Shown here piece after piece: positions 12,268-60,527 of a stretch of DNA of 64,000 nt. The DNA lies in contig OZ237775.1 in the NCBI GenBank assembly GCA_965178125.1, forward strand, positions 186,001 to 250,000. Direction: 5' to 3'. A model generated the notes under the pieces. The model made no database searches. It was not told the origin of the DNA and worked only from the letters and a program-made list of their open reading frames with translations. Each line of letters begins with the position of its first letter. The stretch's first letter is position 1. The position numbers and the translations under genes were made by a program. Origin of the DNA: Bilabrum cf. latius. Its lineage: Eukaryota.

Positions 12268-15200
12268 ATGGGAAACGCTATTTCATTAGGTGCCGAAACG
12301 GCTTAGCTCGAAGAAGGCTTCAAAGTATCCGAGGCTGCAGCGTATTTCGGATCATCCGCACACCAGGTAGGCAGGATTGCCTAGTATGGCGCAACCAAGG
12401 GACGAATCCCGAGAACGATCGGTTAGCTGCTACAAGTGACATCGAATGCGATTGGGGTGGCTGCTGCGGTAGATGCAGGGGTGGCATCGCTTCGCAACTT
12501 CGCAGACTTGCGGGCTGGAACGCAGGATCGGATGCAATCGATAATGACTGTTTTACCTGCCGATGCATTATGCATAAACGCGATGCATGCTTCTGCTATA
12601 ATTCATCAATAGGTAAGCCTGCATTCTGCTCTGCTCTCCTCCGTTAAGTGTCGCGCAATGGGAGCCGCCTACTCTTTTCACCACAGGCTTTCTCCAGGTG
12701 TGCGCAGGCGAACAGCGCGCATGATGCGGCTGGCTCACCACCAGAAAGGGCCGAAGTGGCTATCAGACAATGCACTAAAGTCTCGAAGGATCTTCTAGCG
12801 GTGGCAGTGGCCGGTCCGTGCGAGGGAGACGCGTGGACAGCAGCCGTCACCGAAGCGGCAGCCTCAACAAAGGCATTGTCGAAGTCGGTCATAGCCCTTG
12901 CTGCGCGAATTTACGCCGCAGATTCTTGCGAAGAACTGGTGCAGCAATTCATGCAAAACCATACTGAATACGACGCGGAGCTCCGGAACATGGCCACCGC
13001 GGCAGGGCTCGCGCCCCGCGATACGCTGTGCGATGCCAAATCAGACGCCCTGAGCGCCAGCAACGACTTGCCCGCGCTCAAGGCATGGGCACAAGACCTC
13101 GCCGCCATCGCATGGCGAGCCAGACTAGAGTGGGCCGCGCGCGCCCCCGCCGTGGGGCAGGGCCTCTTGGGAGCTCGACTTGTCTCTGCCCTGGAGGCCT
13201 CCCCGCTCCTGTGCCCGGGGGCGTCCATGATATGTGCCATGCTGCCGCTGCTGCAGCACAGGAGCGAAGCCGTGAAGCTCTCTATCCCTCACTTGCTGCT
13301 CGCCTGCTCCCTCCTCGCTGACCTCGCGAAAGAGGTCCCCTCACTGCGGCAGGCGGCCGAGAGCATCGCGAGGGAGGAAGGGGAGCAGGTGCTTGTGAAC
13401 GCCCGCCGGAAAACGAGCAGGCACGCAATGCAGGGTCTCAAGGGCAAGCTTCCAAATATCCTGCAGATGCCGGGCGACAAGCACATCGCAGACGCCGGCA
13501 GCAGCAGCAATGCTAGGGGCGCGATTGCAGTGCTGCGGGCCATCCGCTCCGTGATTCAGGGAACTTCTTCCGTCCTTGGCGCGCTGTGCACGGGACCGGA
13601 AATAGAGGAAGAGGAAGAGGGGTGGATGGGGGCATGGCTCGCATCCGGGATGTTCGATGGCGGCCTGCAGGGTACCCCTTGCAGCACCAGGGGTCCGGAG
13701 GGGACAGGGGACCTGAGGGCAGCCCGGGAGTTCGTGGCAGCCGCGGCGGCACAGGGGGGCCAGGCCGGGGAACAGATGACCAAGGCACGGGACGAGGCAC
13801 TGCAGGCACGACTGGATGCTTCTCGACAGGAGGTCAGCGCCAGACGCCTGGCGAACACGTCCTGCGGCCAGCTGCTGCATTTTCTCCCCAAGGGCCTCGC
13901 CAATGCCGCCAAGCTGGCCGCCCAGTCCTGTGGGCTGGATGGCGCGCACGTTCCAGCGGAACTCCCGCCTTCTTGGGGCGCTGGTGGAGCTGCCAGCGGT
14001 GCAGGTGCAGGGCACGGTGGTGCAGTGTCAAGCGGGGGTGGGCTGGATCCGAACGACGCAGCCGTCAGCACCGTGCCCTCTCTCAGTTTTCTGGTGCAGT
14101 GCATGGCGGATCAAACGGACCCTGCCAGCGCCAGGAAGATCCAGGAGGCGGCGCTTCCCACCTGCATCCCTGATAAAGGCCGCTCAGAGGATTGCAACGC
14201 TTTCATCGCAAGCTTGTTCAAGGAAAAGGCTGGGAAGGCTTCGTCACCAACCGGTCCCAACAATGCCAGAGGGCTGGGCATCGACCCGTCCACGTGGCCT
14301 GGCAGCAGCAAGACAGGTATCCAGCTCGCCAGGTGGGCTCGCCTGGCGCTGACCGAGCGCAGTCGTCCCAAGGGCAAGCCAAAAGGCATCGAGGTCGCGT
14401 TCCTGGCGGCCTTTCTGCGGCACAGCGGAATGTGGGAGGAAGTGTCGGCCCAGGTGCGCCGAGCCAGGGCACAGGCGGGTGAGGCCGGCCTTGCCTCGCT
14501 CAAACTGCAAGACGCAATGCCCCCGCCCGCCGAAGAGGGTCCGATCTGTAATGCCATGATCGTACTGACCAACTTCCTAAGCTCCAACAAACCCAAGAAA
14601 ACGGACGGTGAAGCTGGTGCCACCCAGGGCGGAGCGCAAGGCGGCCCCGCAGCCGGGGGAAATGCCGCGGCGCCGTAGGCAGCAGCAGGAGTGCCACCCC
14701 CGCCCCCGCCCGCGGGAGCGGGAGCAGGAGCAGCAACCGGTGCAGCGGCCGCTGGTGGTGACGGCGCTGATGGTGGTGATGGCAGGGCTGGAGATGGGGC
14801 AGCAACCGGTGCAGGGGAAGGCGGTGCTTAGAAGGCCGCCCCCCGCGGGGCAGCCTTCCGCTCCCGCAAGCAAATGTCCACGGTACACCCAACGTCGATG
14901 CTGGACCGCGAGAGGAATGCACGCGGTGCCCTACTGCTCTGGGCATTCTGCGGGGCGGGGGCCTCCCCGATCAAGCATGAAGGTCTGGCGAGGGCGAGTC
15001 GTGCCTCCGCTGCTGCGCACGCGCACAGCGATGCCCCCAGCGAGACGTTCGGTCTCGAGTTTGCGTACACCACTTCGATTAAGAAGGACTTGAGTGGGGT
15101 GGTGGGTCTAGCCAAGCAGGACGCGGGTGCTAGTGACAGGCAAGCGAGCGGAAGCATGAGGGAGGAAGAGAAGCACTCCAAGAAAATGTGCTTCGCGTTC

Positions 15201-18200
15201 GCGGACCGGCACCCAGACACGCGCGCGGAAGGCCTAGGACCGGTGCTCACTGCCCTTCGAATTCTCATGGGCGAGACGCACACCCTGGACCTCGGGGCGC
15301 TCGCAGGGTCGCTGCACAGGAGGAGGCAGCGAGCGGCGGATCGAGTCATTGGGCTGCGTGGGATAGAGGCACTTCTGGCTGGAGTGAGCGGCTGCCCCAC
15401 CTTTTCGTTCCTGGGCGCTGTGTCGGTGGAGGGCGCTGCATCGTAGCTCCTGTCCCGAGACGTGCTGTGGGCCGTGCCAGACTGCTTCAGGACGCGGTCC
15501 GCCTACGATCGCAGGGTGGGTGTCCCGGTCGAGAGCGGGGCAGGGAATCCCTTGTTCCCTGGAAAGAGACAGGCACTGCACCTGGAGGCAGGGCTGAAGG
15601 GGGCGCCAGCAGATCTCGTGCGGCAGGTGAGGCTGCATGGCGGCAGGCTGCTGGGGCGGCTGGTGCAGCTCACCAAGTAGGTGGGCAAACAGGGCCGCGC
15701 CAACGTGCCGCTTCTGCTTGCCGCCGGCTCCTGCATTGCACTGCAGTGGCGTCCAACCCGGGACGACTGCAGACTACTCGCAGCGATCGAGGCCGAGCCG
15801 GCACTGAGGTCGATCAGCAATCTCAAGGTGCAGCTGGACAGCCTTATGGAGATCGCGTCCACTGCAATGCAGGCCCTCTTGGGACAGGAGATCGGCCAGC
15901 ACTGCTTCCCAGACGGTAGCCAGTTCGATCAGATGACGCTGCAGGAGCAGCTGCCAGCCATCGCTTGTGCCGTCAGGGCCGGAGACATGCCAGCCAGGGA
16001 GCTGGCTGCCCTGCTGCTTGCCGCTGCAGGTGTGAGCAGATCCATGCTGTCTGTGCTTGGGCCTGAAGACGAGCGAGGCATGCCATCGCTGAAGAAGGAG
16101 CTCCTTGATGGCTCGGCCTCGCTGGACAAGCTAGCCGAGTCCATGGGCCCGCAGGGTATGCTTTCCCAGCTCGCTGTCGCCGTGCACACATCCAGGCTAC
16201 ACTTGGATCCTGCGGTTGCGGGCGATAGCTCAGCGGGGGATGCCGCAGCCACCGCGGCAGCCGCTGGTGCCAGTGATGGTGCCGCTGACTCTGCTGCAAG
16301 TGCCACCGCCAGTGGCGGAGCGGAGGGTGGCAGCAGCAGTGCAGCGGCGGCCAGCGCTGCCGGAGGGTCGATCGACAGCGAGGACCTAGCCGTGGATCGA
16401 TGGTTCGCCCCGAACACGCCACAATAGACAGTGGCCAAACTGGATGATCCAGCCCTGGATCTGAAAGTGCTGCCAAGCGCGCTGGCACCAGAGCCAGCCC
16501 TGGATCTCGCCTGCCACGAGATCGAGGGCAGGGCAGGCGGCCACGACCGTCTCGCACTCGCCGCCGTCCAAACTCTCCATGACCTCGTGCGCACTACTTT
16601 GCTCGCGGGAGACGTGGCGCAGTCTGTGGGCGAGTTCACCATGCCCAAGGCAGCCGCATGGATCGCCGGGGGCGCCTCCCCCGCATCCTCCGCGCCCGTC
16701 ACCATGGACTCGGGAGCCAACAATCGTGACATGGAGGTTACCTTTGCGCACGGTCTTCCGCAGCTGCCCGGCATCTGTTTGCCCGCCATCGATCACGACG
16801 TGCGGAATGCCGCGAAGCAAAGCGCGCGAGCTCTTGCGGCCGACCTGCGGGAAATCGCGAATGCTTTCAGGAGGTCCTCGGGATCACCCGCAGCTGGCGC
16901 CGGATCCACCGGTGCGGGCAGCATCATGCGGACCGAGACGAGCTGGCGCAACGCACGGCTGCGGGTGACCCTGCGATCCGCGCTTGCGCTCACCAATGCG
17001 CCGGACCATTGGGACGGTCTGTTCAGCTGCCCGGGAGCGGGCCAGCAGCGGGCTCTCAGCGACGACTAGCTGGGCGCCTCATCAGCGCCGCCCTCTGCAG
17101 AACCCGCGGTGCTCAAGGCTCTCGCCACTGAGAACGGGGTGCAGACTCTCTTGGAGCTGATGATGAACGCTCCATATTCGCTGCAAGCTGCCATCCACAC
17201 TCTGATTCGTCGGGTGCTTCCCACTGTGCCAATTCTGGTGGCATCGAGAGCTTGCCTTGCGGCGGTAAACCACGCCATCCCGCACGCAACGATGATGCTC
17301 AAGCAGGCCTGCATGCCACCGGGACAAGGTGCAGTGCATGGCGGCGGGGCCCCGCCCGAGTGCCTGCAGACTCTGCTGCGAGCGATCGCCGCGATTGGGG
17401 CCCTTCCCGCTTCTGGGTGTCCCACGGCCAACATGCGGCATCCCATTGTGGGCGTCATGCCCAAGCACCAAATCGCGCTTCGAATCCAAACGATGCAGCT
17501 CGGGTGCTTCCGTTCTGTTCCTGTGGGTCCGTTCGCCGGTGCGTGGGCCCACCACCTGTCCTCCCTTGCCGTGGAGACTCTCCGCAGTCTGATGCAGGGC
17601 ACTCACGGCCCGCACGCCGATGACTGGGCCAACAGCACAATGGACTGCGTGCGAAGCGGGATCCTTGGCGATCCCACAGCTCCTTCCAGCGACTGGGAAG
17701 CGGCAAAAGTCGCCAACAGCTGGAATGGTACCGTGCACGCGCTGGTGGGGCTGGAGGGGCGCGGGTCGGATGCACTGGCCCTCCGCGGCACCTCGTACGA
17801 GCTGGCCGTGCTCGCGGAGGCCGCTGCTTCTGCGTGGACCTTTGGCGGAGGACGGAGCGCGCTGGCTCCTGGCCAGTCCTACCGGCACGCAGTTCCAGGC
17901 AGCGGCTGGAGTCGGAACGAGTCGGATCCAATCATGAGTCAGGACCTTCACGCCGTTCTGTTCGCGGAGAGGAGGGAAGGCGCTGTGCTGGCATGGGACC
18001 CGGGGACCGCGAGCACAGTGTGCATGGAAGTGCCCGAGCGTGCGGGGGGCGGCGAGACCGAGTTCGGGAGCCGGGTAAACACGCAGGGCAGGTGTAACCT
18101 ACCAGGGGCAGATGCGTGGGACACAGAGTGCGCTTGGGCGAGCGGGCCTTTTGCGGCGGCGAGCAGCCGGTCAGCGGATGCCGGTACCGTTGGGGCGGCG

Positions 18201-21200
18201 TGTGTCGCTCCAAGCGGGCACGTACTGCCGTTCGCTCAGCTGCGGCACGGCCACAGCGTGGGGTATGCTTCGACCATGCCGCCCACCACTCTGGACGGGG
18301 GACTGTCGCAGCGGCTGGGATCTTTGCGCGCGATTCCGACCCACGAGCTTCGTTCAATCTCTGCGGTGTCACCATTCTGCGACGCTGCCGTGCCACCGTC
18401 GAGGGGGGGCACGTTCTATGGCCTGTACAAGACTTTGATCAAGGCGCATAGCAGCACGGATTGGAGGGAACAGGCAGGTCCCAGGGAGGCCGCAGCTCGC
18501 GTGATGCGGTCCGGGCTGAGGCGACGCGCCTTGCAGGGCTTGGTGCACATGCTCAGGAGCAGGGAGCAGCTCGCCCTAGTGGCTGCAGGCACCGACAAGC
18601 TGCTCCGCACCATCGTGGACATCTCGCTCGAACCAATGAAGTATAGCAGGTTCAGAGATCCGGAGCAGCTGGGTCTGCAGTGCGATGCACTCACCGCGCT
18701 GCTGCTGCCGCAGGATGTGATGGCTGTCGCGAGGAGGATCGTTGTCAGCAAGGACGCGGTGCAGGGAGGGATGGGCCGGCTCGATGCCATCCTGGGTGGG
18801 GCGGGAGGAGACGATGACAGCTCTGGCGATGCGGATGGTACCGCCACGGGTGGGAGCAGAGGTGGCGCAGGCTCAGGTGCTGGGTCTGACCTGCGGCCAG
18901 CAATGATGCGTAGGGAGCCATCTGTGGACCTGCCCTCCACTCTGGGGTCCAATGTGTCCTAGGAAGACTACCAACACGCGCGAAGCCTGCACAGCGTGAT
19001 GCACAGGAGGATGGACGTGTGCGCCATGGCGTATCTGCTAGCAGATCGCGATGAGGACGATGCAAGGCAACTGCTGAGTCAGCATCGCCGTGATGCCGAC
19101 ATCTACGATCTTGCTGACAAGAAGGTGAAGGAGCAGCAAGAAGCCGCTGCCGCTGCCGCTGCTGCTGCTGCCGGTGGAGCCGCGGATGAAGAAGGTGCAG
19201 ACGGCACCGATGGAACAGACGAAGCAGACTCCAGCAGTCTCCCTGGGCTCCTTGCCGAAGCAAGAAGGGCGCGGGAGCTGTGCAGGTCCAAGCCATTGAT
19301 TCCTGCTGGTGTTCATGCGGTGCCAAAGCAGAGCAACTCTGCGGAGCAGCCGTCTAGCTCAGCTGGTTCCAGCCCGGGGGTCGCAGGGGGGTCCAGCAAG
19401 TTTGCCGCATTGTTTCGGAGACACAGCTCGTAGATTGCCGATGGGGCCCAAGACCACCAGCTGGAGGCAGACCTGAAGGATGCGTCAGAGTCTGCGAAGG
19501 CAAAGCGGTTGCTGGCCAGCGGGGCGCACACGGGCGTGCTACCCAACACGGCCAGAGCGCTTGTGGGTCAGCAGCCGGCCGCTGTGGCGCTGCCAGTCGA
19601 CTGCTCCGGTCCAGTCGTTGCTAGCCCGGGGTTGATCCGCGGCTGCACGGTGGTAGTGGCGGGATGTCACGGCGGACACCATGCCGCACCGTTGGGCGAC
19701 AAGGCCCTGTATCTAGCCTGCACCGGCGGGCCCATGTCGGTCGCTGCACTGACGGGGATGGGGGTCATTGGGTACGTGACGGAGGGCGGCAGGGCAGTAG
19801 GGTCTGCCGGGACTGGCAGGGTGCGGATCACGGTGCCGGCGGGGGGTGATTTGGGCGGAACTATCGAAGTGGCTGTGCCGCTGGGTCGGCTGGGACTGCT
19901 GACTGCGCCGTACGGAATCAAGACAATGGGCACGACCCAAGATGCGGTAAGCACCTAGGTGCTAGAGTCGCTGGAGAAAGCGGACAACGGGCTGGCGTCG
20001 CTGGCTGCAAGGCGGGCGCTCTGCACGGTGCTGGCTGGCTGGCCCGCCAACGTGCCGTTTGCTCCAGGAGCGCTGGGCGGGTCTTCCAAGCTGATCGAGG
20101 TGGCTAAACTGGTGGCAGCGTCGGAGGGCGTATTTAGCCAGGGCGCCACCGGACTTGGGATCCAGAGCGTCACACAGCAGATGGCGCAGGAGATGGCCAA
20201 GTCGGCGTCCTCCTTCTCCTACGTGCCCGCTAAGCGTTCAAGCCACGTACCGACCAAGCGGGCCGCATCAGGCGCCGGGAGTTCGTCAGCTGGTGGGACA
20301 TATGGTGGACATTAGCCCACAGACCAGGACGAGGGTGAGGTCAAGGGGTAGTCTGCCCTGGTTGACTCGATCGCTGGGGCTCTAGCTCGATGCATTTTGG
20401 AGGACGAGACGCCGCCCGGCTGGAAGGGCCTGACTTGGAAGTGTGGCAAGTGCAGCGTCAGCAATGTCGGCTCGAATAAGGTGTGCGATTTGTGCAAGGT
20501 GGGCGATAGGCCTGCACTGGCAGCCCGCGATGATCCATTGGCTCCGCTACTACTGGACGAGACAGCCAGGCACGTAAAAGAGGCCACGCGGTCCGTCGCC
20601 AACGCAAAGACTCTGCTCGGCGCGCGCATAGGGGCGGGCACCGCTGCGTTCGAGAGCCAGCACCCTGTGCCCATCGACCAGGCCGTGGTGCACATCGCGG
20701 TGGAGGGGGCCTCCTCGCTATTCGTCGAGTTTGACGTGACGTGCGAGTCTCCAGGGGGATCGAGGGACACCCGAGTGGAATTCTTCGCGGATAAAGAGCT
20801 AACGTGCCTCGTGGCCGTGCGAGCAGGACCCAAGGCGGAGTTCTGCAAGCCGTTCGTGGCCCCTTGTTCCGAGCTATTTGCGCGCACAGTGCACCCGGGT
20901 GGGGAGTGTGACGAGCCGTGGCATGGGTGGTCCTGCACGGCGCGCGGCCTCAACGGCGTGCGCTGGTCTGGAGAGAGGCAGGTGTCGATGATGCCTTCGA
21001 TCGAGTGGGGCACGTGGCTCGTGGACCAGCTCTCCTCCAAGGCGCTGACTCCGACCTTGCTGCGGTCCGGTGCCCTTCACAACGATCTCGTGCTGGCACC
21101 CCTGTGTCAGTATGCTGGCGCGGCGCAGGTTCCGTTCGCTGCCGATGCTCGCAGGTGCCTCATGCGGCTGGTCAGCTGCCCCCAGTACTTCAGCAGGGCA

Positions 21201-23408
21201 AACCCACCGGATCTTGCTCCCATCCTTCGGTTGCGGGATGCCATTCAGGATGACTTATTGAAGCGCGCGGCTGACAGCCCACTGTTCCTCGCCCCCGGTG
21301 TGCAGGAAATGTGCGAGCTCGTGTCGGCCGCAGACATGGCTCAGCAGTACGTGAAGGGAGACATGAACCAGACATGCGTGCTGGACCTGGCTGCTAGAGC
21401 AAAGGGTGCACCCCTCGCCGATCAGGGCACTGAGTGGAATCCAAGGAAACCCGGTCTTGGAGCCAATCCGCCCTTGAACCCGCGGTTTGGAGTCCCGTCC
21501 GACTTCAAGTAGATCACCCCGCTGCAGGCCATGTCGCTCCTGCGAGAAGCGCTGAAAGGCGTGGCAGCAGGCGCAGATGCGGAGCAGTCAGGACCCAGGG
21601 CAGCCCGAATCCCCGACCCGTGGGTCGTGGCAGCATCGCGGCTGGCTCGAAACGCCGGAGAGTTTGAAGAGCTATCCATGCGGGAGCTGGTGCAAGCGCA
21701 CATGGTGCTGAGCGACTGGCCGCTGGACAAGGACAAGGTGCTTGTGGAGCTGCTCCACGAAAAGGCCAAGAAGGCCAAGAAGGACCCGCTCGACCCGGAA
21801 TTCAAGGTGCACGAACTGTCGGTAGCTGCGGAAGACCGGATTGACTTCGGGGGTATTTTCGGGACGGTGCTCAGCGACGAGTCCCTGAGGCTGCGAAGCG
21901 CGCTTATGATCCTTATCAACCGCGCAATCCAGCGGTGTCTCCCGCAGATCGACCTGCGGAGTAAGCTGGGGGAGGCCGCTGTGGGCGACCTCCTGCAGTC
22001 CATGCGACACCTTGTGTTCCATTGCACTGTGAGGCCTCTCGTAGAGAATGCCATGAACGAAGCAGCTACTGTCGAGGGGGATGAGCTGAAGGTAGAGATC
22101 GACGCCGACGATGCAAAGCGAAGCGTATAGGCTGGTATCGTGTCTCCATCCGGGTCTAGGTGCTGCTTCGCTCAGCTGATGAAGAAGCTCGAAGGTGTGC
22201 CTGCAGCCAGGCTACGGTGCCCCATGGACGGCGACAACAAGCTCTTTAAGGTAGAGTACACGGGCGAGGACGGGGTCGACGAGGGCGGTCTGTTCAGAGA
22301 CCTTCTTGCAAACGTGGTGGAGGACCTTTTCAGCCCGACCCCTGGCATTGCTCTATTCCAGCCGACGCCGGCATACAGGTCGAGACTGGAGGGGAGCGCT
22401 GCCAAAGGGGTTGGCCTAGAGGAGGCCTACGTGCCGATCAAGTCTTCACTGGATGAACGAGAGCGCTCACTCATGCGGTTCCTTGGAGTGCTAATGGGCG
22501 TCTCTATGAGGCACAGCCTTTGCCTCGGCGTGGAGCTCGCGCCCATCGTTTGGAAAGGTATCGTGGGCGAGACACCTTCTGCTGCAGATGTCATTGACAT
22601 GGATCCGATCGCATGCAGTAATCTGCGGCTGATTGCTTCATGGAAGCCGGATGCTGATGGCTCGAATAACGACGGCGATGGCGATGGTGCTGCTTCAGGA
22701 GGGGCTGCTTCAGGAGGGGCTGCTGCTCGTGGCCAGGGGTAGGCGCGGGCATTCGAGGCGCAACTCAACGGCGCTGTGTATTTTGTGGATCCCGTTGATT
22801 CTCGCGTGCCTCTGGTCCCAGGGGGCAGCCGGATTCGTGTCACTCTGGAGAACCGGAAGCAGTACATCAATGCCGTGATCAAGAGAAGAGTGTCGCAGTG
22901 CGCCGACACCGTGTCTGCGATTCGGGCTGGAATGTCCGTGGTTGTACCAGACCAGGCCACAGTGCTCTGTGGCTGGAGCACGTTGCGCACTATGGTCGCT
23001 GGGTCAAACGAGATCAGTATCGACGACATCCGTGAGCACGCTTAGTTCCTCCACGCCATCCAACGAGAGCACGATCTTTAGCGTTGGTTGTTCGAGGTCC
23101 TTGAAGAGATGACCCAGCGGCAGCGGAGGGACTTCTTGAAGTTTGCTTGGGGGCGCACTAAGCTTCCAGCCAACGACGCCGGCTGGTATGGACCGAATGG
23201 GGAGGCTATCCGGTTTAAGGTGCTGATGCGGCGAAGGGTGGACCCGCGAACTGACCGGCTGATTGTATTCGGCGATCAACACTTTGTACTTGCTCACACG
23301 TGCTTCTTCATGCTGGAGATGCCCAAGTATACGACCAAGGAGAACCTCAGGAAAAAACTGCTTGAGTCCATGGCAGAAGGTCTCGCTGGTGGAATGCAGA
23401 TGGCATAA
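12268..23408 (+). CDS. Giant HECT-domain E3 ubiquitin ligase (~3,690 aa) with RanBP2-type zinc finger and possible N-myristoylation
   Basis: Exon 1 12268-12612 (MGNAIS...), intron 12613-12686 (GTAAGC...CCACAG), exon 2 12687-23408. All listed ORF pieces 12648...23088 are in one frame, broken only by TAG (20 counted in total). ZnF 'WKCGKCSVSNVGSNKVCDLCK'; HECT 'YTGEDGVDEGGLFRD', 'FLKFAWGRTKLP', catalytic 'AHTCFFMLEMPKY'; TAA at the expected HECT C-terminus. Confidence 0.9.
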
Positions 23409-27079: not shown

Positions 27080-27188
27080 GCGATACTGGAGCTTGGAAAA
27101 TGATGTCAGCTTGGCTCTTTCCCACTTATGCCTGGCATGACGAGTGAGCTGAAAAGGCGCTTCGGCTAGCTGGCAGTCCGACGATACA
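27080..27188. promoter_or_regulatory. Putative bidirectional promoter (109 bp between divergent ATGs)
   Basis: Geometry only: ATG 27079 (-) and ATG 27189 (+); lower GC than the gene bodies. Confidence 0.45.
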
Positions 27189-34666: not shown

Positions 34667-34853
34667 TGGTCACTGATCCGAGTATGCAGCGGCGTTGGCA
34701 TTCATCCGGACTTCGGATTGAGGTGGCCGCACCGATTGGCACTGCACTGCACTGTACTGCACTGCAACAGGACAGCACGAACACACCACGCGGGCGGGTC
34801 CAATTTTGACTCGCAGTTTCCCTTGGATCTGCAACATAGCTTTAATAACAACC

Positions 34854-37800
34854 ATGTTATCCCGGATCTCAATCGCAGCCACTGCCGCAGCGATACAGAT
34901 TTGGATCTTCGTGTCGGCGCGTCACGCCGAGGCGTCACTGTTTGCCACCGTACGGCTCGGAGCCAGCTCCCCGGAATTTCCGTGCTCAGCGAGAAGTGCG
35001 TTTTCGTTCCAACCTGTCGGCTCAAAGGCCACCGTCAGCCAGAAGGGCGGCAGCTGCAGTGTTGAACCGGACCTGCCTGGCATGTACACAGTCTCAACGG
35101 GCGGCAATCCTGCTCAAGAAGTCACAATCATGGGGATGAATATTAGTGATGTGCTACCCCATGTCATCAGCAGCTCAACGTTTCCAGCCGGGAGCAGCTT
35201 GGTGGACAGCGACGCACTCCACGACTACTGGGGTTTGCAACAGCCACCAAGTTAGCAGTGCAATGTTGCAGTTGGTGCATCAGGAGGTTTAGAATGGCAG
35301 AGTGTATCGCAGTACGATAGAGCTCACCATGGTCGGCACAGTGAGGATCCACAGGCGCAATCACAGCTGCGCGGGGCTCAAGTAGCCACATCGGGCGCAC
35401 CTGCTACGACGCAGTGCTCATCGCTGCGCAGCACTCGACCCCCCGGCTCCCAGCAAATGAGCTTCTTCAAAGGCCCGGTACTCATCAAACTAAGTGGCTT
35501 GGAACTGGTCGATGCGTCTTCCAATATTTCTGTCCACATAGTGCCGGACCGCCCGTCGCGAGCCGCGGGAGACGACGAGGGCCCGCCCTGCGGCCTCACC
35601 GTTGAGGTGGCGAGTGTGACGAGTGCGCAGGACAAGCTGCAGGTCCGTCTGCTAGCCCGCCAATTCGTAGACGAGCAGGCACGCGTGCTATGGCAGTCTT
35701 CCGTCCCCGCAGGGTCCATGATCCAATCGCCCAGGGGGCGAGCCACGGCCGCAGTCTCAGGAGCACTGAACATCCAGCTGCGCGCGGATGCAAAGAACGC
35801 GAGCCTGCAAGTGACATCCCAGACGAGCAGCGGTGCCAGCTCTGCGTACAGCTACAGCTCCGATCAGATACCTCACGGCCTCGCCTGGCAGACACTGGGG
35901 ATGACCTCTGCGGCCCGCCCCGATCTGCCCCAGATCGTCCTCGGCCGCATGGAGGGAGGGTACGACGGGGGGAGCGCGGTGCTGCTGGGAGCGAGCACAG
36001 CATCGCCTTCAACGAACGTTCGTGTGGGTTCGTCTGGGGAACAAGATGCGGCGCTGGCCCGGCTGGGGTCAATCTCGATCGGGTGGGACATGCCTGCCAA
36101 CTACCTGCCCGGCGTGCTCGCACCGTACACCGACGTGGAGCAGGCCGAACCAAGGGTGGACATGGGGTCATACCACGACGAAAAGACCACCGCGCCTGTC
36201 CCCGCCTCCAGAGGAATGCTTGACGCCACCCTGCCTCCCTTCGAGGCGGATCCATCGGGGAAGAGCGACTCGACACTCGCCATCCAGGCTGCCATCCAGT
36301 TCGCCATGCAGAACGCCATGGCGCTGTGGCTCCCAGCAGGCAACTACACGGTGACCCGGAGCCTCATTGCCTTTGAATACCCGAGGTACACGGCCGGCGG
36401 CGTGGCCGCCTTCAACGGGACGGACAACTACTGTTGGAGCAGGTACAACGCCCTTCACATGAGGGGCCCTTCGGGAGCTCCCAGGCTATCCGCCCATGGG
36501 AGGGCCAGGATCGTCGTCCCACCCAACACGCCCTTCTTCTCCTCTTCTTCACAGGAGCCCCGGACTGAAAGTCCTCGATCGTCCAACGGGCCAGTGCCCT
36601 CGGCCGGTGCCGCGGTGATCAACTTCAACACGATCAACGCGCTGGGCTAGTACCAGACCAACATCGGCATGAACCAGGTGCTGCAGAGCGTGGACATAGT
36701 GGTGGGGCAAGGCAACGATAAGGCCGCCGGCGTGTTTCTTCAGGCGGCGCAGGGCAGCGGCGCCGAGGACGTTGGGGTGGATCTGGGGCCCGACGGGCTG
36801 GTGGGCCTGCTGGGGGGCGCTGGCAGCGGGGGGGCGCACCACGGAATCACCGTGAAAGGGGGCAAGATCGGGTTCGACCTGCGGGAGGCGCAGCCCGCAC
36901 CCACGCTCAGTGGGGCCATAGCCGTGGGATAGCAGTGCGCCTCGCTGCTGTACCTGGGCAAAGGGGCCTTGTCTGTGGTTGGCTTCAACTTCACGATGGC
37001 ACCTGATGCCGCCGGGGCCCAGGCTGTTGGTAGCGCGCTGAGCTACTTTGATGCAAATGCTGGAGACAAGGTGCGACGAGGACCGTTGGGCACGACGGAC
37101 ATGTCTGAGTGTGAAGCGGCGGCATAGGTATCTGGCATCACGGGTCACGTGGCAGGTCATGGTGAGTTGAGAACCGATGAGATTGCCGAAAGCACGGAGG
37201 ACATACAAGCTGGCGGGCTTGGGCTTGGGCGGACCAGCGCCTACTACACCGGTCTCATCGCTCTTGTGGACGGGGTGATTGAGACCCCTGCAGGGGCGGC
37301 GTGCGTGTCCACGGGCCGCCCCATCACGATGGAGAACGTGTGGACCGCGGGGTGCGAGACCATCGCAGAGGGCAGCGCGGCAGATCTTCCCGTCAAGGAG
37401 CAGGCATGGGCAGTGCGCAGGAACCAATCCAGAGCCAATGCGCAGCATGAGGGGAGTGAAGCCGCCAAGTGGGTGGTGCTGAACAGGGTCACCGCAAGCG
37501 TCGATACCCCCCCCACCCAGGGGTACACCTACCCGTCGCCTGTGTACAGCAATGGGTAGAGGACGGTCCCAACGCCAGGCAGCATACCGCAGGAGTCGAA
37601 CACGCATGAGGCACCCGCGGGCAGCAGCCCTCCATCGGACATCATCACTCGTCACACCTGGAGCACGGACTGGCCCTCCGTTGAGTCGCAGGGCGTCATA
37701 TTCGCCGAGGACCGCGGCGCGAAGGGGGACGGATACACGGACGACCACGGCGTGCTGCAGGGGCTGCTCGACGGGCCCGGGAATCCAGTCGTTGCCCTCA

Positions 37801-38921
37801 CTCGAGGCAGGTACATCGTGTCCAAGCCACTCGTCACACCGCCCGGGGCGGCCCTGGTTGGCCTGACGAGGCACCTGACGGTGATCAGCCCGCCGGCCCG
37901 AGGGATGAGCGCGCCCGCGGGGCAGGTGCAGCCCACGGTGGTGCTAGGCGCTACTCCGGGCAGCACGGTGCGCGCACCCGGAGGCACATCGACGGTAGCA
38001 CCGCAACGCGATGCACCCAGCGTGCTCTCCCACCTCACCGTGGAGACCCCCCTGCACCTGACCAACGTGACCGGCATCACCGCCGTGGGCCCCTTCGAGT
38101 CAAGACAGAGCTACACCCACAGGAAGAACGTCTGCGGGTCCGACTGGTCTGCACCTTGCCAGAGGCTCTGGAATGAGACCTTGCGGGCCACCAGCCCTCA
38201 GGTGGTGTTTTCGGGTGGGGCTGCGCAGGGGAGGTGGTGGACGTTTTTCCTTGAGGACTACATCCTCGAGGCGCTGAACGTGGGGCCGGCCAGCAAGGTG
38301 CAGCCCACTGCGGGGCACGGGGGACCGGTGGAAGCAACGTACCGCCACGTACTCATCGAAAACGCCAACGAAGGTTCGCTGCGGTTCTACCAGTTTAACA
38401 CGGAGCACGCACGGTCTGACGCAAACGCCGAGATCAGGAACAGCAGCAACGTGACCATGTACTCCCTGAAAACAGAGGGCAACGCATGCGTGCTGTGGAT
38501 CAGGAACTCAACGGACATAACCATGTTTGGGTCGGGGGGCAACGCAGTTGCCCTGCCACTGAGCGCCAACTACTCGCAGGGGTACACCCAGGGGATTCCG
38601 CCCTCCCTCTACAGGGTGGACGAAGGTTCGTCGAGGGTTCGCCTGGTGGTCCCCACGGACCAGGGGAGAACCAAGGGGGGCAGTCCCTCCGAGTTTCCGG
38701 GGGAGGGGTTCGATCCCAGGACGTGGAGCATGGTGACCTGGAGCGGCAACCTGTCATCGCCCGCTGATGGCACCCACTGGCACGCGGGCTCGGGCGGGGC
38801 GGTCTCGGGTTAGGGCAATCAAGGGCAGATGCACCACGGTGGTGATGTGATGGGCAGCACGGGAGGCGGGTGGCATTTTTCAAAGCCGCTCGACCGACCG
38901 GGGCTGTGGAAATGGGACTGA
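34854..38921 (+). CDS. Secreted beta-helix glycoside hydrolase (GH55/pectate_lyase_3-like, two beta-helix starts; ~1,355 aa)
   Basis: Signal-like N-terminus; 'MLDATLPPFEADPSGKSDSTLAIQAAI...LWLPAGNYTVT' and 'AEDRGAKGDGYTDDHGVLQ...RGRYIVSKPL'; one frame through TAGs 35253, 36648, 36930, 37125, 37557 and 38811; TGA 38919-38921. Confidence 0.7.
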
Positions 38922-39015
38922 AACGCTGCAGGCAGGATCGTGGGGTGCAAACCGGAACACTCGGTGCCTCTACCTCCAGATTTCCGGGCATTATTGGCGC
39001 TGGTAGTCAGGGTTT

Positions 39016-53690: not shown

Positions 53691-54353
53691 ACATGATGCA
53701 GATCTACCGATGGGATCATGATGCAGATCCAGTCGAGGGCGAGCGGTGGTGGTGGGTTTCGGCTCGACGGGATGGCAGGGCAGAGCAGGCTCACAATAAT
53801 GCATTGGGCCACCGAGATGCTATAAAAGTGGAGGAAGGATGGCAAGAGCGCCTAGGATATCCGACTTCCCACTGCTTTTGTGTCTCGCTCCCTCCGAGGC
53901 GGTGACGACAATCGAGCAGCGCGTGGGGTAAACTGCATTCGAATGACGTGTCTATCCAAGACGTACTAGTTTTAAAGTCAGACTCTGCCTTATTAGTCCA
54001 GTTTTCGAAGGTCTTGTCCCCGGGCGACTGGTTCAACTGTGCTTTAGTAACGTGTGTATTGGGACTTCACCCGAAACCAGTATTGCAATAGCCAGTCGCC
54101 AATTCCGATTCGCAACGTGTGAGCTGTAAAAGTTGGTCAATTGATAAACTATGCTTGTGACTACTATGATATAATCCAGTTTGTTCCTAGCTGCACCCTC
54201 GAGTCTCCACCCAGTACGCGTATCCACTTTTGACATCTGCCTCGGTTTACCGTTCACCACATTCTCAAATGATTATGGCCGACATTCGGCTACTGTCAGC
54301 AAATTTTACAGTATAATTCCTTGTTATCTTACTCCCCTCAAACATGCAGGAAG

Positions 54354-56021
54354 ATGGCATCTTCAGGTGCTGCGCGTATCCCTGTCACAAAGTCTCCAAT
54401 CCACGGGCTTAGTGTTGCTGCCCTCAGGACGAAGATCCGCAGCAGGGACCCGCCCCCGCCTGGAGCAAGGGTGAATCAATTGAAGTGGCTAGCGACCGCA
54501 TACCAGTCGAGGTTTGTCGATGAATATAGGGTCATCATCGATGGATCTGACTTCTTCGTGTCGAGCGAGGATCTGCGGCACATGGCAGCCGCCCTCGGCA
54601 CCCGCACGGCCGGCTCCAAACACGACGTGATGGAGGGCATCCAGCAAGGAGTGGCAGATGGATTGCCGGCTGCACCCCGGCCCGACGCGCGCAGGCCGGG
54701 ACATGCCATGACCAAGTCTGCGATCTGGGGCATGAATCAGACCGAGCTGCGAGCTGGGCTGCATGCCAAAGTGCCCGGGCTGAATGCTAGGACTACGCAG
54801 GTGGCTGTGAAGTGGCTGTACGTGGGCTGCAAGTGCGAGCTTGTGGACGAGAACACCGTGAGGTACGGCCGTGACGAGTACGAGATGAGCTTGAGCGACT
54901 GGAAGGCGATGGCGAAGGCCTGGCAGGTAAAAGATTATGGTACCAAGTTCAAAGTAATGGTGCGGATCCGGGCTGCAATCGAGGAGATGAGGAGCCCGAC
55001 ATCACCTCCGGCTCCAGCCCCAGTGCTTCCCCCCGCCCCAGCCCCAGCCCCAGCCCCAGCCCCAGCCCCAGCCCCAGCCCCAGCCCCAGCCCCAGCCCCA
55101 GCCCCAGCCCCAGCCCCAGCCCCAGCCCCAGCCCCAGCACAACGCAGAGGGTTTACGGGCCCAAGGAAGCAAAAAGCTCTGAAGCCGATCGAACTTCCTA
55201 TCGCAGAGTGCGTATTCTGGACCATGAAAACCCCAGAGCTGAGGGAGATGCTCCGGGGCAAGGCGATCGGCTTATCCAAGGCCAACCTGCAGGCCTTGCG
55301 CTGGATGGCTGTGTGCTACTCTGGGAGTTCCGTGAACGACGACGGTACGGCGATCGTGGGCGGTCACACGTACAAGCTCACTCGCAAGGATCTGACTGAC
55401 ATGGCAACGGCCATAAAAGTTCCGCGCCCTGGCAGTGGAAGCAAGGCGGACATTGTCGGGATGATCCGCGAGAAGCTCAGGCACGATGCACTCAGGGGCG
55501 GGGCAAGGCCTATGGTCGGCGAAGGTACCCAGGCCAAGGGGGGCGCAGCGACCCAATCCAGCCCCGGACATGCCAAGCCCGAGACCCAGTCCAAGCCCGA
55601 GACCCAGACCAAGCTCGAGACCCAGTCCATGCCCAAGACGAAAGGCCGAAGTACTCCTTCCAAGGGCCGCAGCACTCCCCCAAAAATTCCGGAGGTGCCT
55701 CGCATTTCAATGTGTCCCGAGTTGCAGCTTACCAAGACGCAGCTACTTGGACTGGTGTCTCTATGCATGCCAACAAAGATAGTCGAATCGCTGGCCAAGC
55801 AACCTCTCACGGTAATGCGGTGGCGCGCAATTGGCTACGTTGGTGCGCTCAGTAGAGCGGGCATCCGAGTTCGGGGCCGCCGCTACGAGATGGCGGCCTC
55901 AGACTGGCGAAACATGGCGAAAGCATTCGGTGCAGCGGAGCATCCGGTCACAAAGAGCGTGGTTGATGGGGTATTAGATCACGTGGCTCGTATTAAACGG
56001 TTCGGCGAATCAACCTTGTGA
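54354..56021 (+). CDS. Uncharacterised protein with four SAP/HeH-like repeat modules, paralog B
   Basis: The first ~670 bp are near-identical to paralog A; modules 3-4 are diverged ('LTRKDLTDMATAIKVPRPGSGSKADIVGMI'); (PA)n linker; ends TGA. Confidence 0.7.
   Translation: MASSGAARIPVTKSPIHGLSVAALRTKIRSRDPPPPGARVNQLKWLATAYQSRFVDEYRVIIDGSDFFVSSEDLRHMAAALGTRTAGSKHDVMEGIQQGVADGLPAAPRPDARRPGHAMTKSAIWGMNQTELRAGLHAKVPGLNARTTQVAVKWLYVGCKCELVDENTVRYGRDEYEMSLSDWKAMAKAWQVKDYGTKFKVMVRIRAAIEEMRSPTSPPAPAPVLPPAPAPAPAPAPAPAPAPAPAPAPAPAPAPAPAPAPAQRRGFTGPRKQKALKPIELPIAECVFWTMKTPELREMLRGKAIGLSKANLQALRWMAVCYSGSSVNDDGTAIVGGHTYKLTRKDLTDMATAIKVPRPGSGSKADIVGMIREKLRHDALRGGARPMVGEGTQAKGGAATQSSPGHAKPETQSKPETQTKLETQSMPKTKGRSTPSKGRSTPPKIPEVPRISMCPELQLTKTQLLGLVSLCMPTKIVESLAKQPLTVMRWRAIGYVGALSRAGIRVRGRRYEMAASDWRNMAKAFGAAEHPVTKSVVDGVLDHVARIKRFGESTL
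55036..55138 (+). repeat. (GCCCCA)n microsatellite encoding (PA)n, about 17 units
   Basis: Perfect hexamer run inside paralog B. Confidence 0.95.
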
Positions 56022-56183
56022 TGGGCCGCCGTTCAGCTAGCGCCAGTGGGGTGCTCCCGGTGCCAGGCACTGTTGCTCGTGTCTTCATCGAGGAGAATGT
56101 CTTTTTAATACTACCGGATTTGCCTGCTTGTAAACAATTACTTTTAAGAATCATGCACAGCGTAGAGCTTTTGCGGAGACACT

Positions 56184-58730
56184 TCAAAGAGCCATGGCCG
56201 TGGCATTGGATGCGACCTCCACGGCGCCCCTCGCTGCCACGTCCAGCAGAGAGGGCGAGTACACGGCGAAGGAGAAGAGGCCAGCGGACATGGAGCCCAC
56301 TACGATAAGGGTGATGACCCACCCGAAGGCAACCCTGGCCACCATCCACCAGTTGATCCCGTTGCAGGGGTTCTCCACGAGCCCCACCCCGATGGTGGCG
56401 CCCACCTGGCAGTGGGTCGTGCTAAGGGGCAGCTCCAACCGGGACCCGATGATGATGACAAGTGCGGCTCCGAGTTCCACGAGGAACCCCCTGGAGGGGG
56501 TCAAAGGCACGAGCTCCACGCCGATCGCCTGGATGATGCGCCAGCCCAGGGTGGCCAAACCCACAACGATTCCGAATCCTCCGATCAGAAGCACCCAGGC
56601 GTCCACGGGCGAGCTGGAGGCCACGATCCCCGTCGAGTAGATGGCCACGATGGCGGCGAAAGGTCCCATGGCGTTGGCGCTGTCGTTGGCTCCGTGTGCG
56701 AACGAGTCAAAGGCAGCAGTGAACACCTGCAGGTACACGAAGGTCTGCTCGGTCTTCTTGTCGAACCGCTCGAGGTTCTTGTGCATCTGGGCCACTGTTC
56801 CCTCGGGGTCGTCCTTGAGGCTGCTGTGCACGTCGGCGGAGACACCCTGCGTCAGGACGGTCATAGCCGTGCTGGATGCATTTCGCTCCTGGTCCTGCTG
56901 CTCGCCGGCTGGCCCGACCTTGCTCGTGGTGGTGGCGCCCGTTGGCTTCACGTCGCTTGCCCCGGCTGCGTTCATATCATAGTCATTCGTGGGTGCGCTG
57001 GCCTTGGACTCTGATCCCGGGGCGGGGGCCTCTGTGTCAGCCACCTTGCCGGCGTTGATCTTGCCCCCAGAGGTGGGCAGCACTGCAGTGCTGCGGTTGC
57101 TCACCGCCCCCAGCTCAATGTCGCCCTCTTCTTCACCATCAATGGGCACGCTGCAGGGGCTGCCAGGTGCCTCCATGTCCATGCCCTCCTTGTGTTCCTC
57201 AGAGACCGGACCGTCATCGAGCTCTGCGGACCCTCCGCCGCACCCGCACCAGACGGGCAGTACCTTGGTTCCATCGAGGATGTTCTGCTTCAGCCAGGGA
57301 ACAATGGTGAACTGCAGGGCTACACCCACTACGAGTCCCGATCCGATGGAGCTGACGATGCCGATCCACAGGGGCGTGTCATCCAGCTCGAGCGCGGGCG
57401 TGCCCTTGTACACGATGAAGAAGACGTTGATGGCGACAGTGATGGCGATGATGATGGGCATGAAGGTGAAGGCGCGCTCAAAGGAAAACGCAGACCGCAG
57501 AATGGTGTACCTCAGGGTCCAGTAGGCCCCCGCGGCGAGCACGCCCGAGAGAATGGGAGACAGGAACCAGCTGGCCACCACCATGCCCACCTTTTGCCAG
57601 TTCACGGCGTCCGAGCCACCCGCTGCCAGCGCCATGCCGATGACACCGCCGATGGTAGAGTGCGTGGTTGATACAGGCATCTTGAAGTATGTCGCAATCA
57701 TGAGCCAGACGCCCACGGCGAACAGGACAGAAAACATGCCAATCATGAGGACATCCGGGCGGTCGACGAAGGCGTCCGTGTCGACGATTCCCTTGCGGAT
57801 GGTCTTAGTCACATGAGCTCCTGCGAGCACAATTAAATGACGCAAATATATCGTATCTGTTATGTGCCCGGTGCACTCTTAGCTTATTGTGCAGCAGGGC
57901 CTGGCGCCCCCAAAGACTGCCCAAGCTTCTCCTCGTGCAAAACAATACGCTACGCAATCCACATCATTCCAAGAGACAAATAGAGCATGACTTTGTACAA
58001 ATCGCACCACGATGTGTCCTTTAGCTGGCAGCAAGTGCTGTGAGCCACAGCTTGGGCCGCGCACTGCACCAGCGAGCACTTGCTTCGTCCCACAACCATG
58101 TGCAAACGCAGGCGCAAAATGCAAAGCAGAACAATAAGACCACTGCATATTGCTTCAATATTATCCCACAGAGCAGCGCAAAAACGAACCTTTTGGTCGG
58201 AGGAAGCCCGAGATTCGATGATGCGCTGCCGCACCTTGGGGAGCATCGCCACGAGCAGCTTGCAGTCGGCGGCTCAGTGCCGACTGGACTCACCCATGAG
58301 AAAGGCACCGGCGAACTCAAAAATGCCGGCGATAATCACGGCCTAAAGAAGAGTGACCGACTTAGCTCCGACAGAGCTGCCAAAGCTGTTGGCGGCATCG
58401 TTTGCGCCTGCGAGGGGAAGGCTCGGGGGTGAGGCGAGGACAGCGCGGGTCACAGTCATCGAGCATTCTGGCATGCCGCTGGTCACATTGGCGATTTTCC
58501 AGGGCAATTCAAGCGTACATTCCGATGCAATGGGTACACTTAATAGTAAATGGTTGTGCACGGTAACCTGCGTGCGCCGTCTCCTTGCTTTCGTGTCAAG
58601 ATGCGGTCAATGTGACCTGATGGCAGCATGCACGCCTCTCACCGATGCCGAATGCTGCGAAGAAAGCAAGAAGTCCGCCGATTCCAACAATCCATTCTAA
58701 TGAAGTTGGGTCTGCGCTCAGGACGTCCAT
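56184..58730 (-). CDS. PiT/SLC20 (PHO4-family) sodium-phosphate symporter, 612 aa
   Basis: Exons 58730-58643, 58407-58294 and 57820-56184 (1,839 nt, in frame). Signatures 'GIGANDAANSFGSSVG', 'MPVSTTHSTIGG', 'FAHGANDSANAMGP', 'LPLSTTHCQVG'. One in-frame TAG at 58343-58345. Ends TGA. Confidence 0.95.
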
Positions 58731-59251
58731 GCTGTCTGTCTCTTTGCCTTCCCTGCTGTGTGAAGTGATTCGACACGCGCCCAGCATGGCATCCGGATTC
58801 CACCTGCTTACTTCCGGTATTCTTGCACGAGGTTGTACGAAGATGCGCCCGGTTCCCTGGCCATTCTGATACGTTGAACGCAGACAACGGGGTCCTATTT
58901 GGATAATATAGACGTACCCTGTGTGATATGGTTGCGAAGTATGTCTTCAACCTTGTGCTGCGGCCCATCAGCCGCCCGCAACGTGAACTGCAACTGCAAC
59001 ACAACACAAGCCACTATCGGACTGTGTGTTGAATTATCACGCGAACCACCAGAAAAAGCATCCAATCTGTAGATGTAAACTCTTTGAAATGCTCAGTGGT
59101 TTGCTTGTAAATGTGTGCAGCGACTTCTTTCAGCCTTTCCCTAGACCTCACTTCTCCCCACGGCACACCCAAGCGTTCATGGTCACTGATATGATAGATG
59201 CTACTAGAATAACTCGCATGCATGTTCTTGCTTGCAATCGCACTCAGGCTA

Positions 59252-60527
59252 TCAGCCGAGCTCGTCCTCGGCCGTGGCGGTAGCATCCTCGGTCCCCGCC
59301 TCGATCTCCCCATCCGCCGCCCCGCTGAGGCCCTTTCGCACCAGGAGCAGCAGCCTGGTCCTCCAAGGGCTCAGCTTGGAGATCCGATCGTACTCGGCTA
59401 GCGCATCCACGAACCCCTGCGCGTTGCCCTTCTCCACCGCCTCCACCAGGTCGGCAAAGAGCCTGCCCTCTCGGCTCTCGGCGAACGTGTAGTCCAGGTC
59501 TCCGAATCGATCTAGGGCCTGCTTGGCAGCCACCACGTCGTTAAGAGCCAAGTAGCATATCCCCGCATCAAGGAGGTGTTCCTTGGCCTGGAACTTGAGA
59601 AGGGAGTTGTCCGCCCTCGCTGCTGCCACTGCCTCGTATGCCTCTGCCGACTCCTGGTACCTGCCGGCATTCGCGCCCAACTCTGCCCACTTGAGCTTGC
59701 ACTGGTTGGCGCTGCTCTCCGACCTGTCCCCCTCAAAGTACCCCATCGCCTTCTCGAAGTGGGACATGGCCTCCTCCCAGTTCTCCTCCTTCTCCAGTGC
59801 CTGCGCGAGCTGCTGGTGCATCTGGGCGGCCTGACGGAACTTGCCGTTGGACACCAATCGGGGGATGCACTGTGTCTCCAACACGGCCCCCGCCTTCTTG
59901 GGGTCCACGAACTTGAACATGTCCGCGGCGTTCTTGTACATGGCGCCAGCCGAGACGTCGTCCGAGAGGTTCAGGTACATCTGCGCCGCCTGGGAGTAGG
60001 CCTCACCCGCCTTGCCGTAGGCGCGCGCAGCTTTATACTGGTGCCCTGCCTGCGTGTAGGAATCGCTGGCTTCCGTGTACTTTTCCCTGCGGTGCCAGCA
60101 GCAGAGGCGAACAAGTTCCACAAGCAAATGCCACAGCTTCGAAGCATGCGCAACTACAGCGCATCGCGTGCATACGCAAACTAATTGAGAAAAATTTATA
60201 GTCTTACACAGAGCTAAACATAACGAATCGGTCTCTTGCAGAATTCCCCTGCGCTTGGATAGATGGACGGATTCGCAGCACGGCATAGAGCAGCGACGAT
60301 GCTAAACACGCAACGCGGTGATCAGCAAGGTTCTTATCATATTATACATGCCGGTACTGGTTCGTAACTTCGCGGGACTTCCAAGCGCGCATCCAGCAGA
60401 TAGCAAGCATGGTCGAACGGTCCTGAGACCCTCCAACACTTTCCCTCACTTCTTGCATCAGAGAGTCCCCCTTTGCCTCGAGCGGACTCCCTGTTCCACC
60501 TGATGGTGCACCTTTCACTCCAGCCAT
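59252..60527 (-). CDS. NAPA: Alpha-soluble NSF attachment protein (alpha-SNAP/Sec17), 317 aa
   Basis: Exons 60527-60450, 60248-60208 and 60086-59252 (954 nt, in frame); 'GKFRQAAQMHQQLA', 'SSANQCKLK', 'NSLLKFQAKEHLLDAGICYL', 'FAESREGRL', 'YDRISKLSPWRTRLLL'; ends TGA. Confidence 0.95.

Follow-up and report, generated by a model that had tools for sequence, protein, structure and literature searches.

In the code of NCBI table 6, which is used by many ciliates, Dasycladales, and hexamitid diplomonads, both UAA and UAG are read as glutamine (Gln). Codes with UAA and UAG as Gln are mentioned in the abstract of PMC5304391. It is rare for UAG to change its meaning while UAA goes on acting as a stop, and the cases given in the abstracts of PMC5304391 and PMC11687900 comprise a single fornicate, a single rhizarian, and a small number of phyllopharyngean ciliates. 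In the fornicate, Iotanema spirale, the nuclear code is described there with UAG as Gln and with UAA and UGA as stops (Panek et al., 2017; PMC5304391), and UAG is given as putative Gln for two of the phyllopharyngeans, Hartmannula sinica and Trochilia petrani (McGowan et al., 2024; PMC11687900). For lineages of this kind, the same two abstracts propose a tRNA-Gln that reads UAG together with a release factor that ignores it (PMC5304391, PMC11687900). Codes that change UAG alone bear on the mechanistic separability of UAG and UAA by eRF1 and tRNAs.

Here, a stretch of 64,000 nucleotides, analysed as a whole and termed the window below, is compared with these systems. UAG has probably been reassigned to Gln in this genome, with UAA and UGA kept as stops, and the TAG in its PiT gene would be an ordinary sense codon; on the sequence comparisons below, we put the probability of this reading at about 0.85. 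As in the codes of table 6, UAG would stand for Gln, presumably by the same route, through a tRNA-Gln whose anticodon is one step away from CUG/UUG; unlike in those codes, UAA is not a sense codon, with 0 in-frame TAA in the 3586 codons of the window's HECT gene vs. 22 out of frame. The window resembles I. spirale, as far as that code is set out in PMC5304391, in that the reassignment affects only UAG, with Gln as the inferred residue, and in that UAA continues to act as a terminator (in the HECT gene and in an orthologue on the metagenome contig L001). It differs from I. spirale in its GC content of 55–69% per 2 kb and in having bicosoecid stramenopiles as its nearest named homologues, and TGA is the usual terminator in the frames here, whereas UAA is given as primary in I. 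spirale (PMC5304391). The likeness to H. sinica and T. petrani, as these are presented in PMC11687900, lies in a UAG-only reassignment to putative Gln inferred from alignments. In contrast to these ciliates, for which UAA is given as the preferred stop, the window has long GC-rich genes interrupted by spliceosomal introns of the GT..AG type, and no feature suggests that the window organism is a ciliate.

Under the preferred reading, the PiT mRNA would be spliced as predicted with its UAG retained, and the ribosome would insert Gln at the conserved Gln of the family, giving a full PiT protein of 612 residues. By analogy with other lineages in which UAG or UAR is Gln, the codon may be decoded by a tRNA-Gln(CUA) or by an efficient near-cognate tRNA-Gln, and eRF1 may no longer recognise UAG. 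Within the 64-kb window, no tRNA gene was detected by ARAGORN, and there were no Rfam matches; the eRF1 gene lies outside it.

A PiT/SLC20 gene with one in-frame TAG

The gene is located on the minus strand (58730..56184) and consists of three exons. Exon 1 (58643..58730) starts with the ATG at 58730..58728 and closes with the opening base of a Gly codon that the intron splits. Intron 1 (58408..58642; 235 nt) leads to exon 2 (58294..58407; 114 nt). This exon codes for the signature block around the N-terminal GANDxAN, and within it lies the TAG at 58343..58345 (CTA on the plus strand), read here as Gln. Intron 2 (57821..58293; 473 nt) is followed by exon 3 (56184..57820), with 544 full codons, a split first codon, and the second GANDxAN copy. 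Exon 3 contains zero in-frame TAG, TAA, or TGA up to the terminator, a TGA at 56186..56184. Both introns are of the GT..AG type on the minus strand, with GTGAG at the start and CAG at the end, and exon 2 is preceded by CAG and followed by GTGAGT. The joined frame comprises 612 codons, and its single internal stop triplet is the TAG at codon 51.

In proteins of the PiT/SLC20 family, the GANDxAN signature occurs twice, once in either half. Both copies are present in the joined translation, GANDAAN across exons 1 and 2 and GANDSAN in exon 3. Against the Pfam profile PHO4 (PF01384), exon 2 matched profile positions 3–38 (E = 5e-11; 42.6 bits, with a cut-off of 33.7), and exon 3 matched positions 42–349 of 350 (E = 4.7e-100; 335.4 bits), so that the gathering score is exceeded and the two exons together cover the profile from end to end. 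The best homologues share 41–62% identity. By family membership, the gene is predicted to encode a PiT/SLC20/PHO4 phosphate transporter, with transport coupled to Na+ or H+. Since exons 2 and 3 are contiguous in the PHO4 profile, there is no space for an additional intron.

The original prediction, made from the sequence alone, had placed exon 2 at 58294–58407 with canonical splice sites, had put the TAG at 58343–58345 in frame, and had seen no room for an intron around it. The coordinates, the GT..AG ends, and the translation of the exon were all reproduced, the TAG is in frame in the joined sequence, and the PHO4 match positions of exons 2 and 3 abut. It had also taken a cDNA lacking UAG as evidence against itself; in the joined contigs from X5 and X7, whose library type is guessed, the TAG is there.

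These contigs come from a search of public sequencing runs, in which seven runs contained matching sequence, none of them recorded as RNA, and four (X1, X5, X6, and X7) were compared over 56100–58800. X5 and X6 belong to study P2, and X7 belongs to study P3. The library type of X5, X6, and X7 is a guess of the search tool (RNA, with X5 also labelled "probably DNA"), and the contigs give no expression levels. X1 covers 56100–58800 in one unspliced piece with zero joints and is probably the source of the assembly. Contigs of X5, X6, and X7 skip 473 and 235 bases, with cuts at 57820/58294 and 58407/58643 that follow GT..AG on the minus strand when the tool's "+1" alternative placement is used. 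Intron 2 is skipped by contigs in all three of these runs and intron 1 by one contig each in X5 and X7, in which the exon 1/exon 2 joint 58407/58643 is present. Record 5 of X5 spans the whole of exon 2, TAG included, and extends into exon 1, with 0 differences, and record 11 of X7 runs from exon 3 into exon 2 and across the TAG, again with 0 differences. The same TAG triplet is present in data from three studies. As the TAG is intact in the joined contigs of X5 and X7, neither splicing nor editing removes it, to the extent that the guessed library type holds.

TAG and the terminators across the window

Across the whole window, TAG serves as a sense codon. When TAG is read as sense, the longest open frame grows from 3156 to 10,758 nt, with another five frames longer than 3400 nt; when either TGA or TAA is read as sense instead, the longest frame stays at 3156 nt in both cases. 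TGA is the commonest of the three stop triplets in the window. In 14 stop-to-stop frames, some of which include upstream non-coding sequence, 76 TAG were counted among 16,235 codons, and TAG makes up about 0.5% of the codons in the long frames. The triplet lies in frame in many unrelated genes. The longest is a HECT ubiquitin-ligase frame on the plus strand (12648..23408; 3586 codons; HECT domain E = 1.8e-46), in which TAG occurs 16 times in frame and TAA and TGA 0 times each, vs. 22 + 13 TAG, 7 + 15 TAA, and 68 + 46 TGA in the two other frames (35, 22, and 114). A pectate-lyase-like frame on the plus strand (34722..38921; 1399 codons) has six in-frame TAG and ends in TGA, a frame for a TSP1/EGF protein has five, and PiT has one. 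Other long frames, including that of an LRR protein, hold 3–14 TAG.

The other two triplets, TAA and TGA, have kept their role as stops. In the HECT frame the stop is TAA (23406–23408), and 70 of the 122 homologues aligned to the end of the HECT protein finish within 3 residues of it; the TAA thus lies at the natural C-terminus of the family and is a true terminator. The L001 orthologue of the pectate-lyase-like gene likewise has a TAA at the homologous C-terminus. UAA is therefore kept as a terminator in both gene ends checked for it (HECT and the L001 orthologue), a small sample, and TGA is the usual terminator in the frames examined. Among the two window gene ends and the L001 end that were compared, no homology-supported C-terminus with TAG as the stop was seen. 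A minus-strand frame at 23615–27355 ends in TAG and TGA in tandem.

Several other genes of the window, namely an alpha-SNAP-like gene (recognised by eye), Fumble, GH31, and exon 3 of PiT, have no TAG in their conserved parts; for the GH31 fragment, the family was confirmed by an ESM Atlas look-up. The only paralogous pair in the window (51597–53687 and 54273–56018) has no TAG in the aligned coding parts.

The amino acid read at TAG

The original prediction had placed the PiT TAG on the conserved Gln of the PiT signature. To read this column, the best 120 homologues of exon 3 were taken, and the 103 with GANDxAN in their first 150 residues were used, while the other 17 were left out as N-terminally truncated or as carrying a variant motif. 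The residues opposite the TAG among the 103 are Q64, D23, S6, T3, H3, V1, K1, A1, and N1; L, E, Y, and W are absent. The 23 D all come from one group of near-identical segments (seven distinct 45-mers), and a set of 17 representatives with less than 80% identity gives Q13, S3, and D1. The 25 segments most similar to exon 2 of the window have Q in 25 of 25 cases. Within the 38 columns of the exon block, the TAG column is the sole one in which Q is the commonest residue, and it holds 64 of the 65 Q of the block; this concentration in a single column argues that the placement of the TAG is no chance coincidence. In 6L85, the solved bacterial PiT of Thermotoga maritima, Q stands opposite the TAG, so that a conserved Gln written as Q in 6L85 is encoded by TAG here. 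A term search of the main text of the 6L85 paper gave no mention of Gln or glutamine (PMC7413737), and no described role can therefore be cited from that main text for the residue. The placement on a conserved Gln was thus borne out, with Q in 64 of 103 homologues and in 6L85, and with none of L, E, Y, or W and a single K in a column that the original prediction had expected to be dominated by Gln. By itself, the PiT column is weak support for Gln, and comparisons with orthologues are now the main basis of the assignment.

The distant homologues of the HECT protein were poor witnesses. The HECT domain has three TAG sites that were set against 150 representatives: the column at 22128 is acidic (D29, E28, and Q2 of 92), that at 23043 is variable (R28, E27, V17, T16, and K13, with Q8 of 149), and that at 23079 is aliphatic (V60, I48, M6, L6, A5, C4, and Q4 of 140), and four PDB alignments agree with these three columns. 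Taken alone, these columns would not have supported Gln. The N-terminal TAG sites of the HECT frame are covered by just 0–7 distant homologues each. A TAG in a GH28-like frame (38851–40041) faces A and N in two plant polygalacturonases, in a variable column, and there was no PDB match for the pectate-lyase-like frame.

A close relative of the window organism is represented by split gene predictions in a public protein collection and was compared at the protein level. Its orthologue of the pectate-lyase-like gene is in two pieces (P0288 and P0289), that of the HECT gene is in four (P0293–P0296), and 3037 of 3435 aligned residues (88%) are identical to the window. Opposite 12 TAG codons of the window, the relative has Q at eight and, at one site apiece, E, L, K, and H. 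In the HECT gene (plus strand), Q is found at the TAGs at 14676, 14829, 15444, 17067, 18960, and 19431, E at 15678, and L at 21510. In the pectate-lyase-like gene (plus strand), the relative has K at 36648, Q at 36930, H at 37125, and Q at 37557. One fragment of the relative ends exactly at the window TAG at 19956, a stop position common to both. The stops that end its fragments face the window codons AAG, CAG (or GAA), GAA, TAG, GAG, and TCG; as the stop triplets are not visible from proteins, the end at 19956 alone was used as evidence.

A likelihood model was applied to the 12 sites, with substitution frequencies taken from the same alignments of window and relative. The log10 likelihoods were −9.2 for Gln, −18.9 for Lys, −21.6 for His, −35.8 for Glu, −37.0 for Tyr, −37.3 for Trp, and −43.5 for Leu, a lead for Gln of 9.7 over Lys, 26.6 over Glu, and 34.3 over Leu. 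In a relative as close as this one, a UAG that meant Glu, Leu, Tyr, Trp, or Lys would be expected to face mainly the synonymous codon one step away (GAG, TTG, TAY, TGG, or AAG, respectively), and no such predominance is seen. A transition turns TAG into CAG, which makes CAG its most frequent neighbour by single mutation, so the correspondence of TAG and CAG could partly reflect mutation and not meaning. However, ordinary CAG codons of the window face Q in the close relative in 93 of 103 cases, and by comparison the TAG sites look like Gln codons under somewhat weaker constraint. The original prediction had favoured Gln over Leu, Glu, Tyr, Trp, and pyrrolysine, and it agrees with the eight Q among 12 sites and with the best likelihood for Gln. 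At the level of protein alignment, the close relative provides what we consider decisive support for the putative Gln reading.

A third organism contributes a metagenome contig, L001. A scan of metagenomes with a HECT fragment of the relative gave no match, and a second scan gave L001 (2734 nt; GC 0.54), which carries the counterpart of the pectate-lyase-like gene, an orthologue whose protein is identical to that of the window at 426 of 739 residues (about 58%). In its 774 codons there are eight in-frame TAG and no TAA or TGA before the terminal TAA. Opposite the three reasonably aligned window TAGs, L001 has Q at one (36648), TAG at one (36930), and V at 37557. In the reverse direction, one L001 TAG faces a CAG of the window, and the window residues opposite three L001 TAGs are R, A, and R, two of them in poorly aligned stretches. 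These three residues and the V at 37557 speak against Gln.

Four other explanations were weighed against UAG as Gln. UAR is read as Glu in peritrich ciliates and Blastocrithidia (NCBI tables 30/31), and a Glu codon in the window would suit the HECT columns at 22128 (D29 and E28 of 92) and 23043 (E27 beside R28 of 149) and the E of the close relative at 15678. However, E occurs at just one of the 12 close-relative sites, though the synonymous neighbour GAG should dominate there; Glu lies 26.6 log10 units below Gln, there are 0 E among the 103 residues of the PiT column, and we regard this reading as very improbable. Leucine, which is given for UAG in PMC5304391 and PMC11687900 in the rhizarian exLh and some phyllopharyngean ciliates, would fit the aliphatic column at 23079 (V60, I48, M6, and L6 of 140) and the L of the relative at 21510. 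That single L among 12 sites leaves Leu 34.3 log10 units below Gln, the PiT column contains 0 L among 103, and even the aliphatic column shows hardly more L (6) than Q (4), so that Leu appears to be a scarcely credible candidate.

The codon may instead be ambiguous, either a sense codon that also acts as a context-dependent stop or one decoded by a near-cognate mixture (Gln with Lys, Tyr, or Trp) without a dedicated suppressor tRNA; the reading of stop triplets as sense or stop by context occurs in Condylostoma and karyorelicts. The K and H found once each opposite TAG in the close relative speak for such ambiguity, as do the tandem TAG TGA at the end of the frame at 23615–27355 (minus strand), the small number of window gene ends compared with homologues (just two, the PiT TGA and the HECT TAA), and the failure to see a decoder tRNA within the 64-kb window. 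However, a triplet that makes up about 0.5% of the codons of long frames, essential-looking domains included, would be hard to sustain with inefficient or mixed decoding, and none of the homology-supported C-termini (the two window ends and that of L001) ends in TAG; ambiguity is thus considered unlikely. For the PiT gene itself, the TAG could be a defect or a site that is removed, through a pseudogene, a nonsense allele, an assembly error, RNA editing, or alternative splicing. It is the sole TAG in the gene, and most conserved genes of the window have no TAG in their conserved parts. However, the same triplet is found with 0 differences in contigs of four runs from three studies, the joined contigs keep it, and their joints fall at the predicted junctions; the other 561 codons are open with a PHO4 match of E = 4.7e-100, and dozens more in-frame TAGs lie in the neighbouring long genes. 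Contradicted by the joined contigs and by the in-frame TAG across the window, this explanation was rejected, and we assign it a negligible probability.

Lineage and annotation of the genome

The nearest named homologues of PiT and HECT are those of Cafeteria and another bicosoecid, at 37–42% identity. At such low identity, the bicosoecid homologues are a hint of the lineage and not a placement. We know of no nuclear code change in stramenopiles. No report of nuclear UAG reassignment in stramenopiles, bicosoecids, or Cafeteria was found in the open-access literature searched; the code variant, with UAG as Gln and UAA as a stop, is already known, and its occurrence in this lineage appears to be unreported in that literature. 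If the bicosoecid affiliation is true, the window would represent a nuclear code change in stramenopiles.

We tentatively suggest, as a possibility rather below even odds, an unreported clade of GC-rich, intron-poor heterotrophic eukaryotes near the bicosoecids that uses UAG as Gln and UAA and UGA as stops. Equally tentative is its membership, which on the same joint reading might include at least the window organism, the relative with about 88% identity, and the relative with about 58% identity. As TAG is common to orthologous sites, the reassignment would be old. A further independent lineage, represented by no fewer than three members of differing relatedness, would permit dating of the change and would provide comparative material for the evolution of eRF1 and tRNA-Gln.

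A large fraction of the genes of this genome comes out truncated or in pieces when annotated with the standard code. The public orthologues of the close relative are split into two and four pieces, as standard-code annotation would do, and in the case of PiT such annotation would drop the N-terminal signature. TAG as Gln is the right translation setting for this genome, in which the GC content along the window ranges from 0.55 to 0.69 per 2 kb and the genes are long and intron-poor.

Relatives and the reach of the code

In the close relative, whose proteins are about 88% identical to those of the window, the orthologue of the HECT ubiquitin-ligase gene (12648–23408, + strand) is represented in the public protein collection by at least four separate predicted proteins, and that of the pectate-lyase-like gene (34722–38921, + strand) by two. 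One of the breaks between the HECT pieces falls exactly at the site of the window TAG at 19956. The division of these orthologues into pieces, with one break at a TAG, therefore indicates that the genes of the close relative were also fragmented by standard-code gene calling, which suggests that it has the same code as the window, with UAG read as Gln. A more distant relative is represented by the metagenome contig Ga0136560_1013301 (positions 1–2734, GC 0.54), which carries an orthologue of the pectate-lyase-like gene encoding a protein of 58% identity. This gene contains eight in-frame TAG codons and terminates with TAA. The TAG reassignment seems to be clade-wide rather than confined to one species.

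TAG in conserved and repetitive frames

The conserved parts of two further genes are free of TAG, namely a GH31 glucosidase-like gene (62322–63998, + strand), which is incomplete and extends past the window end and whose family was confirmed via the ESM Atlas, and an alpha-SNAP-like gene (59255–60445, − strand), identified by eye only. This absence fits the sparse occurrence of TAG in conserved genes.

Within the HECT domain, the TAG at 23079–23081 (+ strand) lies in a strongly aliphatic column, with V or I in 108 of 140 homologues and Q in four; a Gln encoded by this TAG would be out of the ordinary for that position. A Ser/Ala/Lys-rich frame of 1247 codons (23615–27355, − strand) ends in TAG followed directly by TGA (23615–23620).

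In the frame at 44640–47081 (− strand), a Gln-rich hexapeptide, AQQQPx, is repeated some 40 times and then degenerates to ...PK-TAG-LPN, where AAG, TAG and CTG each occupy CAG positions of the repeat. Two further TAG codons lie in the C-terminal domain that follows.

The PiT message and the tandem paralogues

Contigs joining the exons of the PiT phosphate transporter gene (58730–56184, − strand) end 6–12 bases 5' of its ATG (58736–58742), and in one of them sequencing-adapter sequence is attached at 58736. This may point to a very short 5' untranslated region, although contig ends do not prove a transcript end.

Two tandem paralogous genes (51597–53687 and 54273–56018, + strand) share 90% identity across 212 residues, and their Pfam matches are all sub-threshold, the highest-scoring being SAP_new25 with 18.1 bits (cut-off 26.3). 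At about 55020–55130, within the second gene, lies a long (GGGGCT)n microsatellite whose + strand translation is a Pro-Ala repeat.
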